Part shown: piece by piece, positions 1,163-60,952 of the stretch
How positions within the stretch are numbered: position 1 is the stretch's first letter
Layout: each line of letters opens with the position of its first letter
IMG/VR virus record: IMGVR_UViG_3300027842_000015
Span: 2,099-66,098 of that record
Source: a virus
Taxonomy: Duplodnaviria > Caudoviricetes
Reading direction: 5' to 3' (one strand)
Length of the DNA stretch: 64,000 bases
Made by a program: the position numbers and the translations under genes
The notes under the pieces: model-generated
Database searches by the model: none
The model's input: only the letters and a program-made list of their open reading frames with translations
Told to the model about the DNA's origin: nothing

Positions 1163-1821
1163 GGGGCACCTGTGAACATTGTTTCGTTGTGGTCTGCTTG
1201 ATACCACGCCATGGGCACTTGGTCAAGAAGTTCTAACCGTGCAAGAGTATTCACTTCCCATTCAACATTACGGGTCTCGCTTATTCGTCGTGCCGCGGTA
1301 CCCATGGCATACGCCGTAAACGGCTTTATCAGTGCACGAGGCACGACCATTACACCACCACAAAATCGCCAGCAGGGGTGTGCTGGATCGATATCTCGTT
1401 TCTTGGGCCAACAGCCGGGGAGTGTCACCTTGCCATAACTATCCACCCGGCTAAGGAATTTCTGAATTACCGGGGCGGTAATACTCGGAATATGCATAAT
1501 TCCGTAATCGATCCAAACAAACGTATCCGCAGTGTCCATAGAATGCGCAACACGCAACCACTCAAATTTCTGGTGCTGTACGGCATGATAAGCGAGTGTG
1601 TTCTTGTCCGGGTTATCTGAAACAGAATGGGATACATTTGGCACACCCCGTAGAAAGTTAGCAAGCCACGTATCTTGAACTTTCTGCTGGTCACTATCGA
1701 ACACAAGTGCTTCTACGTCGCCCAAGGACCCAAGTAATTGCTCACCGAGCGCCTTGTAATCGGTGGTTCCCCGAGGATGATTAGGGATATCGATATAACC
1801 CGTGACAACCTTTACTGCCAT
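1159..1821 (-). CDS. HtrL/YibB (WlaTC)-like putative glycosyltransferase, paralog 1
   Basis: VVTGYIDI, FVWIDYG and WRFCGG motifs typical of the HtrL/YibB family. Confidence 0.62.
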   Translation of the reverse strand: MAVKVVTGYIDIPNHPRGTTDYKALGEQLLGSLGDVEALVFDSDQQKVQDTWLANFLRGVPNVSHSVSDNPDKNTLAYHAVQHQKFEWLRVAHSMDTADTFVWIDYGIMHIPSITAPVIQKFLSRVDSYGKVTLPGCWPKKRDIDPAHPCWRFCGGVMVVPRALIKPFTAYAMGTAARRISETRNVEWEVNTLARLELLDQVPMAWYQADHNETMFTGAP

Positions 1822-3770
1822 AGCAAATCCCTTACCTCGTGCTCGTCTATAGTTGCAAGCCAAGCTTCTCGGTCAAGCACACCAAACGAGACTATGAACT
1901 TATCATTGTGGTGAGCAAGACCAGCAGCAAACTCAATTTGCTTTCCGAAGAACACAAACGGCTTCGACACCTTACGCAACACGTATTCTTTATCAAACCA
2001 TACAAACCGGTGTTGATAGTACCTCTTCCCATTTGTCGGGTCCGGACGTGCCTCATGAACGATTGCAATATACCCACCGTCAAACGGGACACATTGGCCA
2101 CCACCTGAAAACTGATCTACTGCAAGAATAGGTTCGTGTTTTACAACGAATTCTCCGTCACTTCTAACTACCCACCCAGGACGATACATGAACTTAAATC
2201 TTCTATCATCTAATATCGGCATCCAATTCTTTTCATTCTGTTTGGGTTCAACATCCATCCGGCGCCAATTAAATACCTCTCCAGTTTCTGGATTAATCTG
2301 CATACAAAATTGTTCGCGCCATGCATTGGAATTCTGTTCAAGAACGCATCCATTAGTCCAAAGTTCTCCATGCCAAGGGATAAGTCTCATATCCTCAACA
2401 TCGAGAATATCCTTGAATACCGGTGCAGGGAAACCGGTTGGACGTTGTAGTTCTACTACTTTTCCGACCACAAAATCCAGGCTAAAATCAGCCAAATAGT
2501 TAGTGGTGCGAATAGCATGATTGCCATTATAATCGTAGCTACCATCGGGTCTAATCCTATAGCTTACTGTACGCACGATTGCCTTGATCTTATCATCCAC
2601 AATCGCCACAGACGGATTTGAATTCACGAACTTGCTATCCGGATTTACCTCCGGAATTCTATAAGCCTTGAAAGACGGCGTGTAATTCTTAAGCGGTTGC
2701 AAATACCAGAACACGTTCCGCCTAGCAGTCTCACGGACAACATCGGGCACCTTGCGCATAAGGGAAAGATTATCAGCAGCAGAAAAGCCAATATCACGTG
2801 TCTTATCATTATATGCCCCCAGTATAGACAGTTCTTCCATGAACCCATAATCATACACATGTTCCTCGACAAATAACAAATCTCCAGGCTTCTTTATCTT
2901 TGACCCAGCTTGGGCAAAAAGCCAGCCGGTTTGTTGTGCGTCCTTTTGTTCTCGATAGTGCCTAGCAAGATCATAAAGCGGTTCCGCACGAGAAGGGCGG
3001 TCGTTATATGCATTCAACGCCCAACGTATAAATTCCCCTTCTTCACCCAAAGCACGATAACATCGTGCAATAGCTAGTCGGGCGTACCAGACTTCTTCGT
3101 CCCACCCTCCAACGTCAACTCGGCGTCGGTAGAATTCGATCGCCCGGGTATGGTCACCACTGTCACGATAAGTCTGGGCAAGATAAAATAGAGTGCGCCC
3201 GTCGTTAGGGTGGATACCAAGATACTCAGTAAGAAGTCGTGTATCACGCTCATATTTGTCACTCCTGTTAGAACCCGTAGCATGATCTCGGAACCACCAA
3301 CAGTCAGTCGGTAACTTAGCCGGTGGTGCGTCAAGATATTCGTGCGTTACACCATGATACTTACGATCCGAGCCCTTTCGCAAAAGTCTTGCATTGTAAT
3401 ACGCAAGCGATCCTTGACGCTGCAAAAGGCTATAACACTCTTCGGTAAGTTTTGGTAGCGGTCCATCGACTACCAGTTCCATGTCTGCATCGCAGAACAT
3501 TATGTAGTCAAACCCTGCGTGAAAACGTTGCGCATAAAACAACGCCTTATTGCGGGCTTGCTCAAAATTCTTGAACTCACCACCTACAATTTGATGGGGG
3601 ATACTATACTTGTTAAACATCTCCCGCATGAACGCTTGCGATCCATCTGTGGACCCAGTGTCAAAAATTACCGCGGCGGTAATATGTGGGCACACACTCG
3701 CAAGCATGCGAGGTAGGTTCGAGATTTCATTCTTGATTATGGCATTAAGACAAATGCGTGGCTGCGGCAT
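1812..3770 (-). CDS. GT2 glycosyltransferase + TPR + C-terminal glycoside-hydrolase-like beta-propeller
   Basis: IIKNE, DTGSTDGS, DAD, HE motifs; TPR-like FYLAQTYRD and YARLAIARCY; C-terminal NPSV, EDMRL, EKNWMP motifs. Confidence 0.85.
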   Translation of the reverse strand: MPQPRICLNAIIKNEISNLPRMLASVCPHITAAVIFDTGSTDGSQAFMREMFNKYSIPHQIVGGEFKNFEQARNKALFYAQRFHAGFDYIMFCDADMELVVDGPLPKLTEECYSLLQRQGSLAYYNARLLRKGSDRKYHGVTHEYLDAPPAKLPTDCWWFRDHATGSNRSDKYERDTRLLTEYLGIHPNDGRTLFYLAQTYRDSGDHTRAIEFYRRRVDVGGWDEEVWYARLAIARCYRALGEEGEFIRWALNAYNDRPSRAEPLYDLARHYREQKDAQQTGWLFAQAGSKIKKPGDLLFVEEHVYDYGFMEELSILGAYNDKTRDIGFSAADNLSLMRKVPDVVRETARRNVFWYLQPLKNYTPSFKAYRIPEVNPDSKFVNSNPSVAIVDDKIKAIVRTVSYRIRPDGSYDYNGNHAIRTTNYLADFSLDFVVGKVVELQRPTGFPAPVFKDILDVEDMRLIPWHGELWTNGCVLEQNSNAWREQFCMQINPETGEVFNWRRMDVEPKQNEKNWMPILDDRRFKFMYRPGWVVRSDGEFVVKHEPILAVDQFSGGGQCVPFDGGYIAIVHEARPDPTNGKRYYQHRFVWFDKEYVLRKVSKPFVFFGKQIEFAAGLAHHNDKFIVSFGVLDREAWLATIDEHEVRDLLWQ

Positions 3771-3802
3771 GGAGTGGGGCTCCTGTTTCGCTATGTAATG
3801 CC

Positions 3803-59752: not shown

Positions 59753-60138
59753 TAAGTTGGCGGGATAGTAATCCCTTGCTCCACATGTAGTTTGCCATAG
59801 AACAGGCCATCTACCTGTCCATTCGAAATCGTCTGCATGATACAGTCGTAAACATAATCCCCTTCTGGAAGGGCATTACGAATGGTTGCGTCTGGCACGT
59901 TCATGCCTAGAATACGATTGATCGGATCAATTACCTGAATTTGACCAGCAGTGCTTGTAAGAGCAAGTAGGGGTGTAGGATCGCTATCTGTATTCTGAAT
60001 ATTCAGATAGAAATTCGCACCGTTGAGGGTCCACGAGAAATCGCTAGGATCGCCCAACTGGAGTTGGTCATCCCACCAAACGTTGTTCCCTATGGTGAAA
60101 TCCACACGAGTAATTCCACGCCTATCGATATCAACCAT
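59752..60138 (-). CDS. Fibre-attachment/BppU-N-like beta protein
   Basis: DFTI...LPEGDYVYD...G.L.V..GIT pattern. Confidence 0.5.
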
Positions 60139-60139
60139 T

Positions 60140-60952
60140 TTACAGGTTCCACCATTGCCCAGTTGACACTACCCAACCTTTTTGAGATCGAGTACGGAAG
60201 TTTTGTGGGTATGCCCACGCTTGCGACCCGTTAGTATTCTGGCGCATCGCTGCCACACGTGCGATATTCACCCCTTGACGGAAATATTGATAGTTCAATG
60301 AACCATTTTTGGGGTCTGAGTATGGCCGGTTAGGCTGAAGCATCAACTTACCCTTGATACCCGCCAGCAAATATGGCTCATATTTGTCCATAATGGATTG
60401 CGGTATGTCTGGCAAATCTGGGTCCTGTGGCCTATCAACACTCTTGACCACTACCGCAAAAACAGGAGTAGTTACGCTCTGCGGATATTGGATTTGCAGT
60501 ATATTTAGCTGTGGCATAGCCGCCGTGATAAAAATACCGTTTAAATCAAGTACGCCGGTAAGTGCGATAATCTTCCCCGCAGGAGTTGGATCACCAAGGC
60601 TTTGGGGTTGACCCGGCACAAGCTGGTATAATACCACTCCAGGCAATAGAAGTCCTGGAATTTGCTCGATCCACACCTTGCTGTCGTTAAAAAATTCAAC
60701 AAATACATCATACATCGCCATACGGATCATGGCATCACTGGCACCTACTAGCTCAATTCGTGCTCGCTTGTATAGGTAACCAGTGTGGGGTTCAACCGGT
60801 ACTACCGTTCCAGCAGCAGGACCGCTGGCCCCTGTCACCCCAAAGAACGCAGGGCCAGTTACCGCCCCGGTAATCCCAAGAAATGCTGGTCCGCTGGCAC
60901 CGGTAGCGCCAGTAGGACCAAGCCAAAATTCATTCCAGCCGTCGTCTGACAT
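60140..60952 (-). CDS. Head-tail adaptor/tail tubular protein A-like, with short GxT N-terminus
   Basis: Position after capsid; EFF..S..W and LMLQPNRPYSD motifs. Confidence 0.6.
   Translation of the reverse strand: MSDDGWNEFWLGPTGATGASGPAFLGITGAVTGPAFFGVTGASGPAAGTVVPVEPHTGYLYKRARIELVGASDAMIRMAMYDVFVEFFNDSKVWIEQIPGLLLPGVVLYQLVPGQPQSLGDPTPAGKIIALTGVLDLNGIFITAAMPQLNILQIQYPQSVTTPVFAVVVKSVDRPQDPDLPDIPQSIMDKYEPYLLAGIKGKLMLQPNRPYSDPKNGSLNYQYFRQGVNIARVAAMRQNTNGSQAWAYPQNFRTRSQKGWVVSTGQWWNL

Follow-up and report, generated by a model that had tools for sequence, protein, structure and literature searches.

The genome of a tailed phage from a soil metagenome (IMG/VR record IMGVR_UViG_3300027842_000015, 66,098 bp; genome G000, C1) carries many copies of a short interrupted palindrome, TTACC-N5-GGTAA, which we have investigated in the 64,000-nucleotide stretch covering positions 2099-66098 of the record, here termed the window, whose coordinates are used throughout. 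Our analysis suggests, with a probability of about 0.55, that these palindromes are high-affinity duplex DNA sites for a homodimer encoded by the phage, most likely a protein of 256 residues termed p256, which would work together with a MoxR-like ATPase and a VWA-like protein encoded in its vicinity. This candidate binding function is reflected in the enrichment of the palindrome, the conservation of its sites between related phages, the independent variation of its two half-sites, its co-inheritance with a module of three genes and the predicted dimeric organization of p256, from which we infer the identity of the binder, the participation of the ATPase and the VWA protein and the effect of binding. 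A first-pass annotation of the window had already described the palindromes as sites through which a dimeric protein marks the entire genome. This general reading is favoured by the independent half-sites, the tolerance of different spacer lengths and the co-inheritance with the module, whereas the proteins that had been proposed as binders have not withstood the comparison with related phages.

Enrichment of the palindrome

The exact palindrome is found 17 times in the window, at each of the starts given by the first-pass annotation, and 18 times in the entire genome, the additional copy being located 839 bases before the window. In 100 shuffles that preserve dinucleotide composition, the average number of exact sites is 0.04 and no shuffle contains more than two, and a fourth-order Markov model of the genome predicts 0.15 exact, 3.2 one-mismatch and 35 two-mismatch sites compared to the 18, 11 and 27 that are observed. 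The enrichment is confined to the exact and one-mismatch classes, with the two-mismatch class being at background. In 500 shuffles that retain the proteins and the codon usage of each gene and leave intergenic DNA untouched, the palindrome is found at N5 on average 4.4 times and never more than seven times compared to the 18 observed copies, and the elevated mean is in part a consequence of the three intergenic sites, which are never shuffled. When the spacer is varied between 0 and 20 bases, the 18 copies at a length of five are opposed by at most one at any other length, thus displaying the single sharp peak that the first-pass annotation had named as support for its proposal, and the reversed arrangement GGTAA-Nk-TTACC is found at most once at each length in the same range.

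Peptide repetition and codon bias were both considered as cause of the pattern and are ruled out by the codon-preserving shuffles and by orthologous positions, where motif-free relatives encode similar peptides with other codons. It was thus correct to regard peptide repetition as insufficient, whereas the accompanying claim that the sites are found in different reading frames holds only to a degree, since 11 of the 15 sites located within open reading frames (ORFs) share the frame xTT ACC NNN NNG GTA Axx. The TAA present in the motif on both strands excludes one of the frames. Other details of the earlier description were confirmed: nine sites of the window extend to TTACCG-N3-CGGTAA, the nine listed one-mismatch sites are present and are complemented by two more at 27253 and 63424, the sites at 22200 and 25990 overlap ribosome-binding regions and end 3-4 nt before start codons, and those at 11952 and 41521 are placed at gene junctions. 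The sites of the window are as follows.

1467-1481: exact site, TTACCGGGGCGGTAA, within ORF 1159-1863 (minus strand); the same position (residue 130) has a site in G010
3668-3682: exact site, 89 nt into ORF 1812-3770 (minus strand); the same position (residue 32) has a site in G007
8176-8190: exact site, 29 nt into ORF 8148-8690 (plus strand)
11952-11966: exact site, in intergenic DNA, 14 nt upstream of where ORF 11669-11938 (minus strand) starts
17923-17937: exact site, in ORF 17502-18005 (plus strand)
18908-18922: exact site, near the 3' end of ORF 18643-18951 (plus strand)
19434-19448: exact site, in ORF 19313-19666 (plus strand)
22200-22214: exact site, whose right half (GAGGTAA) is the ribosome-binding region of ORF 22217-22609
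23077-23091: exact site, within the ATPase gene
25990-26004: exact site, 19 nt past the stop of the VWA gene, with ORF 26008-26190 starting 4 nt further on
28013-28027: exact site, DNA polymerase gene, residue 326; same position in G006, and in RHph_TM27A with an N6 spacer
32364-32378: exact site, SNF2 helicase gene, residue 108; same position in G007, G008, G009 and RHph_TM27A, none in the motif-free G001, G002 and G005
35310-35324: exact site, in ORF 34328-35518 (plus strand)
40346-40360: exact site, in ORF 40294-40593 (minus strand)
41521-41535: exact site, at a junction, containing the stop codon of the gene of a 2097-residue protein and located 29 nt into the next ORF
54639-54653: exact site, in the gene of an internal virion protein of 1110 residues
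60859-60873: exact site, 80 nt into ORF 60140-60952 (minus strand)
14369-63438: span of 11 one-mismatch sites, starting at 14369, 26443, 27253, 32261, 44205, 45087, 47666, 48647, 51639, 63382 and 63424

Distribution of the motif and its variants

The nearest cultured relatives of G000 are the Rhizobium phages RHph_TM27A/B, TM29 and TM3_14A. RHph_TM27A has 21 genes in common with G000, with identities of 58% in the portal and 41% in the polymerase, and a megablast search of a phage collection has returned no phage that is near-identical to G000. A scan of IMG/VR for the portal, which provided 102 stretches of which the best 80 loci were retained, has defined a large clade that is closer to G000 than the cultured phages. 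Our comparison set consists of 11 complete relatives, G001-G010 and RHph_TM27A, of which seven bear the motif in one of its forms and four are motif-free.

G000: TTACC-N5-GGTAA, 18 sites
G006, G007, G008, G009 and G010: TTACC-N5-GGTAA, 18, 13, 20, 23 and 18 sites
RHph_TM27A: same half-sites, 26 with an N6 and eight with an N5 spacer
G003: TTACA-N5-TGTAA, nine symmetric sites and three mixed sites (TTACA with GGTAA)
G001, G002, G004 and G005 (complete genomes): no sites, and no replacement palindrome in a 5-mer scan

The portals of the five IMG/VR relatives with the TTACC-N5 form are about 65% identical. Together with G000 their genomes contribute 110 sites, whose pooled consensus is TTACC-G-Y-S-R-C-GGTAA with weak G/C flanks, and in RHph_TM27A the half-site is mostly GTTACCT. 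The length of the spacer varies within the clade between N4, N5 and N6, the shortest form being found in two further IMG/VR relatives (L136 and L137), which contain three TTACC-N4-GGTAA sites each besides their N5 sites. The palindrome is a trait of this clade; three other rhizobiophages, including the N4-like phage RHph_Y38 that infects Rhizobium phaseoli, contain no sites at spacers of N4-N7. Among the titles listed by our literature search we found no description of the TTACC palindrome or of these phages, and none of the articles searched names RHph_TM27A.

A second palindrome, ACCGG-N5-CCGGT, was encountered in several relatives and discarded, as it belongs to clustered collagen-like tail-fibre repeats with a period of 9 nt and constitutes no DNA signal. 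In G000, the repeats CCAGT-N4-CCAGT (53 copies) and CCAGT-N13-CCAGT (43 copies) share a spacing of 9 nt. Such repeats are located at 58481-59752 of the window, in an ORF that matches collagen-like tail-fibre families, and in neighbouring tail-fibre genes, at 63.1-63.5 kb in G009 and at 12.6-13.9 kb in the IMG/VR locus L046. We read the CCAGT and ACCGG repeats as coding periodicity of Gly-X-Y triplets (9 nt), which is misleading in motif scans.

Selection on the sites and their placement

In orthologous genes whose products share about 40-55% identity, sites are found repeatedly at one and the same codon. In the polymerase, residue 326 coincides with a site in G000, G006 and RHph_TM27A and residue 560 in G006-G010, whereas residue 108 of the SNF2 helicase does so in G000, G007, G008, G009 and RHph_TM27A, and further sites at shared codons are found in three virion genes. 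The peptides that fit the motif in motif-bearing genomes (YLHGN, YRYGK, ITAAVI, FTATVT) are in motif-free relatives replaced by other residues or encoded by other codons, as illustrated by YRYGR of G005, which reads TAC CGA TAT GGC CGA compared to TAC CGC TAC GGT AAR in motif-bearing phages. These alignments indicate that selection acts on the DNA, with some positions being retained although this constrains which codons and residues can be used.

The placement of the sites is not random with respect to genes. Among the 110 sites of the six N5 genomes, 22 (20%) are intergenic or straddle the end of an ORF compared to about 9% of random positions, 24 (22%) are within 40 nt of a start and 31 (28%) within 40 nt of a stop, compared to about 11% in either case, which corresponds to a two- to threefold enrichment at gene boundaries. 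In the annotated genome of RHph_TM27A, 12 of the 34 sites are intergenic and about eight more touch or abut gene ends. Several of the sites directly follow a stop codon, with the next start being 15-35 nt away. The early and replication arc, which occupies about 41% of each genome, harbours 74 of 122 sites compared to 50.1 expected (binomial p = 2e-5) and is thus about 1.5 times denser, and sites are found in the virion half as well.

Half-sites and spacer

In the 110 pooled sites, the search itself sets the five outer bases of each half. Position 6 is a G in 100 and a T in nine of these sites, and position 10 is a C in 103. The two positions combine as G-C (93 sites), T-C (nine), G-A (five), G-T (two) and A-C (one), which includes 17 non-complementary combinations, two of them G-T, and the compensated pair T-A is found in no case. 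The centre is symmetric (Y-S-R), with a pyrimidine at position 7 and a purine at position 9, which would be unable to pair across a loop of a single base. At position 5, C is replaced by T on one side in eight sites and never on both, and the mixed TTACA/GGTAA sites of G003 (three of 12) are found at about the frequency expected of independent half-sites. RHph_TM27A tolerates two spacer lengths and carries an N6 site at polymerase codon 326, where G000 contains an N5 site. With respect to a potential hairpin, the letters of the 'stem' are invariant and those of the 'loop' degenerate. RNA folds of the sites have energies of -5 to -9 kcal/mol, with z-scores of 0.06 to -2.0, the best fold at 28006 does not involve the pairing of the motif itself, and no Rfam family overlaps any site. 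The independent variation of the half-sites in conjunction with the variable spacer points to double-stranded DNA that is read by a homodimer rather than to a hairpin, and these patterns favour duplex sites for a symmetric dimer. As pyrimidine-purine steps are easily kinked, the constant presence of such a step in the Y-S-R centre makes it plausible that the DNA would bend upon binding.

Co-inheritance with a three-gene module

The genes that accompany the motif were identified in a phyletic profile, in which all 93 ORFs of G000 were compared to the 11 relatives by tblastn (E<=1e-3), a procedure that would overlook fast-evolving genes and those not contained in G000. Exactly three of the 93 ORFs are detected in all seven motif-bearing and in none of the four motif-free genomes, and their absences were confirmed with profile hidden Markov models and a Pfam model. 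These genes encode p256, an ATPase and a VWA protein, and they are located in the following segment.

21178-21948, plus strand: p256, 256 residues, all-helical, candidate site-specific binder; found only with the motif
22797-23978, plus strand: MoxR-like AAA+ ATPase with Walker A motif GSGxGKS (phrog_1297); found only with the motif
23921-24436, plus strand: ORF of 171 residues between the ATPase and VWA genes, without family match; in five of seven motif-bearing and none of four motif-free genomes
24640-25971, plus strand: protein with a DUF2201_N putative metallopeptidase domain (PF13203) and a DUF2201 VWA-like domain (PF09967); found only with the motif

In all six relatives examined, the order of the module is kept, with the p256 gene just upstream of the ATPase and VWA genes. 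In a tree of portal, terminase and capsid, the motif-free genomes are placed at three positions, with G001 and G002 next to G006, G005 near G007-G010 (support 0.50) and G004 beside G003, G000 and RHph_TM27A (support 0.97). On this tree, motif and module are read as having changed together at least three times. The same association is observed in an IMG/VR scan seeded with p256, where 16 of 16 loci, seven of them from contigs already contained in the portal scan, carry the motif, with two to ten sites in 6.5-20.7 kb.

The VWA protein is assigned with 73.7 bits to PF09967 (cut-off 26.4) and with 68.9 bits to PF13203 (cut-off 23.2). The ATPase has no match to a Pfam AAA family, and its alignment displays the Walker A motif and an hhhhEE/DE motif. 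A Foldseek search with its model retrieves NorQ, which was solved with the VWA domain of NorD, and CbbQ as top matches (E 5e-6 to 8e-5), although the model (predicted local distance difference test score, pLDDT, of 66) aligns with low TM-scores (0.25-0.41) and ORC, MCM and RFC are also among the matches. Homologues of the VWA protein are found in 511 phage records, among the matches listed mostly in N4-like phages of 70-78 kb, and RHph_Y38 contains its own ATPase/VWA pair without any palindromic site. We know of no role assigned to this pair in N4-like phages. In a phage article that mentions DUF2201, the domain is only an entry of an annotation table.

Properties of p256

Of 50,697 phage records p256 matches four, which are the four TM27-like phages, and its family, when clustered at 50% identity, comprises 278 unnamed clusters among 1.84 billion proteins. 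In RHph_TM27A the protein is encoded by ORF 18372-19100 (equivalent to QIG66858). Because it is restricted to the motif-bearing clade, p256 is a specific correlate of the motif. Its model is all-helical (pLDDT 81). The protein has no sequence match in the PDB and nothing usable in Pfam (E<=10), PHROGs, PADLOC or NCBIfam, and in the Atlas it retrieves only unnamed viral clusters, with the family of the phiC31 repressor obtaining a feature score of 0.82, which is below the level that counts. Ten of the 150 listed family members, chosen for their long length or weak E-value, equally lack a Pfam match. In a pattern-based scan of genome contigs, which distant relatives could escape, no p256 relatives were detected in bacteria.

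The protein is predicted to form a symmetric homodimer with a score of 0.80 compared to 0.00 for the best of three controls. Among proteins solved as pairs of one chain, 20 of 30 attain this mark, compared to one of 23 among those solved as single chains. Between runs, at least 74% of the contacts agree, with a pLDDT of at least 76. The listed interface omits a helix encompassing residues 92-108, which exposes a conserved polar and basic face (N93-Q94-x-K96-x-x-S99-x-x-R102). Of the 22 proteins from TTACC-N5 genomes, 21 follow the pattern N-Q-[RQM]-K-x-x-[SA]-x-x-R in this helix, the remaining one (L137) containing A in place of Q, and the helix reads N-V-R-V-A-V-N-R-T-N in G003 with its TTACA motif and G-K-K-A-N-I-S-K-L-R in RHph_TM27A with its N6 spacer. 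In p256 of G003, four of five invariant helix positions are changed compared to 13 of 42 elsewhere. Helix 92-108 would thus behave as expected for a recognition helix, although this correspondence is only suggestive.

The phyletic profile rules out the three proteins that the first-pass annotation had named as candidate binders. The ORF at 12348-12944, with a borderline match to a winged-helix family (25.6 bits at a cut-off of 26.2), is present in all four motif-free relatives and was not detected in RHph_TM27A. The ORFs at 17502-18005 and 26008-26190 have no detectable homologue in the 11 relatives and can therefore not explain a motif that is found throughout the clade.

Features of the phage and its relatives

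G000 encodes a portal, a large terminase, a capsid protein, collagen-like tail fibres and internal virion proteins, a replication machinery composed of a family-A DNA polymerase, an SNF2 helicase, a DUF927 primase-like protein and nucleases of the RecB and VRR-NUC types, and three tRNAs. Integrases or resolvases (PF00589, PF00239) were found in none of the five motif-bearing genomes tested (G000 and four relatives). The large proteins of 2097, 1110 and 1019 residues of G000 have no match to an RNA polymerase in Pfam or PHROGs, although very divergent enzymes could escape such a search. Among the sequencing runs listed, one DNA run contains the window, in the form of assembled contigs, and no RNA run does. 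The phage appears to depend on the RNA polymerase of its host, and the phages of the clade, which are mostly uncultured and originate from soil and rhizosphere, are apparently virulent. The 'putative integrase' of RHph_TM27A (MN988461 42248-45331, L002) is a homologue of the DUF927 primase-like protein of G000 and the annotated 14-bp attL and attR of the same record fall within ordinary genes, and the annotation of lysogeny in this record looks unfounded.

Several other features of these genomes are described here in their own right. G004 (L095-L098) keeps its virion genes, and tblastn detects none of the polymerase, helicase, primase and nuclease genes and no part of the module; its entire replication region appears to have been replaced. 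The 2097-residue virion protein of G000 (41521-47814, minus strand) has an N-terminal PF18823 'InPase' domain (residues 38-173) as sole family match, and this segment is all that it shares with the giant protein of RHph_TM27A. The three tRNA genes are located on the minus strand of the early region (14387-14458, 15829-15902 and 16355-16426), the first directly adjoining the one-mismatch palindrome at 14369-14383. The sequence GANTC is nearly absent from some genomes (five copies in the 66,098 bp of G000, none in RHph_TM27A, one in G001, none in G002, three in G003, none in G008 and one in G009) and common in others (86 in G004, 51 in G005, 36 in G006, 90 in G007 and 29 in G010), a pattern that is independent of the TTACC palindrome and that suggests host-specific pressure from an enzyme directed to GANTC.

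Proposed mechanism and alternatives

In the mechanism that we propose, each subunit of a p256 homodimer would read one half-site, TTACC(G/T), and the dimer would act on a dispersed array of 13-34 sites per genome together with the adjacent MoxR-like ATPase and the metallopeptidase/VWA protein. As its consequence we rank first an operator or roadblock control of the host RNA polymerase on phage operons, which would time the lytic cycle. This role appears most likely because of the dependence on host RNA polymerase, the lack of lysogeny genes and the accumulation of sites in early and middle operons as well as at the boundaries of cistrons. A stoperator-like roadblock, as the first-pass annotation had envisaged, is possible as a mode of action, whereas membership in the stoperator family fails on the palindromic site and the missing integrase. 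As a close second, the sites might mark phage DNA for an ATPase/VWA remodeller, with the p256 dimer serving as adaptor that brings the ATPase and the metallopeptidase/VWA protein to the phage genome, for example for stripping or cleaving host proteins or for telling phage from host DNA, a specific form of the proposal to which we assign a low probability. Two other functions suggested for the palindrome were not upheld: a ParB/parS system is not supported, with no ParB_N domain being found in the five motif-bearing genomes tested, and no result is in favour of a signal for ejection or packaging.

Several observations weigh against the assignment of p256 as reader of duplex sites. The phyletic profile is based on 11 relatives and three changes, one relevant tree node has a support of only 0.50, and a transfer of the module through the mosaicism of phages could obscure how many events were independent. 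Owing to the linkage of the three module genes, their profile does not tell which of them, or the product of the 171-residue ORF, reads the DNA. In p256 no DNA-binding fold is recognizable, with the best Foldseek match at an E-value of 0.46 and the best VIA-align match (Z 7.8) covering only its C-terminal helical hairpin, and no consistent site is found upstream of its gene. G003 and RHph_TM27A also contain the most divergent orthologues, and the differences in helix 92-108 may partly reflect this overall divergence. Moreover, about 80% of the sites are inside ORFs, which is unusual for classical operators, and the C-to-T change at position 5 corresponds to a G-U wobble in RNA, an observation with which an RNA hairpin is still compatible.

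If another product of the module were to read the sites, be it the ATPase, the VWA protein or the product of the 171-residue ORF, p256 would have a different role. The ATPase and VWA genes share the perfect profile of p256, sites often flank the ATPase gene and AAA+ proteins of some clades bind DNA. However, RHph_Y38 combines the ATPase/VWA pair with a genome devoid of sites, the wide occurrence of VWA homologues contrasts with the confinement of p256 to the motif-bearing clade and the 171-residue ORF remains undetected in two of the seven motif-bearing genomes, and we thus regard this assignment as unlikely. Less probable still is a function as hairpin, either in mRNA, where it would affect processing, stability or the masking of ribosome-binding sites, or in extruded single-stranded DNA as promoter of the N4 type or priming signal. 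Such a hairpin would be in line with the capability of TTACCG-N3-CGGTAA to form a stem of six base pairs with a loop of three nucleotides and with the energies of its short folds, with the overlap of some sites with ribosome-binding sites or their location between cistrons, with the joint change of both halves in nine of the 12 sites of G003 and with the general presence of the ATPase/VWA pair in N4-like phages. It is opposed by the invariant stem and degenerate loop, which are the reverse of what is found in structured RNAs, by the lack of compensatory pairs within genomes (neither T-A at positions 6 and 10 nor T/T at position 5), by mixed half-sites at the rate predicted by independence, by the inconspicuous fold z-scores with the unrelated fold at 28006, and by the failure to detect a virion RNA polymerase among the large proteins or an overlap with Rfam.

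The binder might instead be a protein of the alphaproteobacterial host, such as a regulator or nucleoid protein that is exploited by the phage, which would account for the preservation of the half-site between phages whose proteins are only 28-58% identical. This is difficult to reconcile with the lack of sites in the three other rhizobiophages, two of which infect Rhizobium phaseoli, the host species of RHph_TM27A, and in four close relatives with otherwise similar genomes that contain neither sites nor module, and a host binder is in our view improbable to a slightly greater extent than the hairpin. Finally, interrupted palindromes are typical of the targets of type II enzymes and the annotation of RHph_TM27A includes a putative methyltransferase. 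Whereas avoidance is the norm for restriction targets, the palindrome is enriched 100-fold, and no N6_N4 methyltransferase domain (PF01555) was found in the five motif-bearing genomes, with other methyltransferase families being outside the search, and a target of a restriction, modification or nicking enzyme is thus the most improbable of these explanations.

Relationship to known systems

The proposed binding of a p256 homodimer to a dispersed array has parallels in several established systems. The stoperators of Cluster A mycobacteriophages are present in 20-30 copies per genome and are in this respect similar to the array described here, which contains many copies of one short site genome-wide (13-34, both halves counted). 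Stoperators are asymmetric sites of about 13 bp that are read by a monomeric repressor of the L5 gp71 type, which terminates transcription elongation when bound (PMC9283540). In contrast, the sites of G000 and its relatives are 15-bp palindromes with symmetric position frequencies, and their candidate binder, which is predicted to form a homodimer, belongs to an unrelated family. Moreover, stoperator phages are temperate, unlike the phages described here, in which no integrase was found and where most sites are within ORFs. The conserved inverted repeats of the Streptomyces phage phiC31 are bound by the c repressor and are mostly intergenic in a temperate repressor circuit. They resemble the array as inverted repeats of many copies that are read by one phage protein, but p256, which has no Pfam match even at E<=10, shows no similarity to the phiC31 repressor. 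In the KorB O_B operators of plasmid RK2 and in ParB/parS, about a dozen dispersed palindromes are bound by a dimer that can act at a distance. Whereas the dispersed palindromic sites are alike, the dimer is here only predicted, for an unrelated protein, PF02195 (ParB_N) was detected in none of the five motif-bearing genomes (with controls matching in 10 of 14 cases), no partition ATPase was identified and the element is a phage instead of a plasmid.

The lytic T1-like phage TLS, which has no RNA polymerase of its own, contains about 20 copies of an unexplained conserved 21-nt repeat that the authors of its description compare to stoperators; these repeats are direct, oriented with transcription, intergenic and located about 76 nt upstream of start codons (PMC11447400). 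In contrast, the sites described here are palindromic, mostly located inside genes and accompanied by a co-inherited gene module. As illustrated by TLS, arrays of this kind in lytic phages still await an explanation.

With respect to the ATPase and its partner, the fold matches to NorQ and CbbQ and the neighbouring gene of a VWA-domain protein recall the NorQ-NorD and CbbQ-CbbO pairs, and homologues of the VWA protein are standard genes in N4-like phages. However, the former pairs remodel enzymes (a Rubisco activase being named in entry titles), whereas the pair described here is inherited with a palindrome and p256, and we know of no link between MoxR AAA+/VWA pairs and a DNA motif. From the hairpin promoters of N4, the sites differ by the independent variation of their halves without compensatory changes within genomes. 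Collectively, the array works like stoperators, the inverted repeats of phiC31 or KorB operators but belongs to none of these systems.

Significance

Arrays of dispersed operators have precedents in a few temperate phages and plasmids. Our study now describes such an array in a large and mostly uncultured clade of apparently virulent phages from soil and rhizosphere, with a site whose influence suffices to shape the codons and residues of essential genes. The comparison of genomes provides a concrete and testable candidate binder from an unannotated protein family and links it to an ATPase/VWA pair. With RHph_TM27A being cultured on Rhizobium phaseoli, this hypothesis is directly testable, and the natural variants of the motif, its TTACA half-site and its N6 spacer, provide ready-made swaps of specificity. 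If p256 were indeed an adaptor between the sites and the ATPase/VWA pair, this would assign the first DNA-linked function to an unexplained pair of proteins that is standard in N4-like phages.

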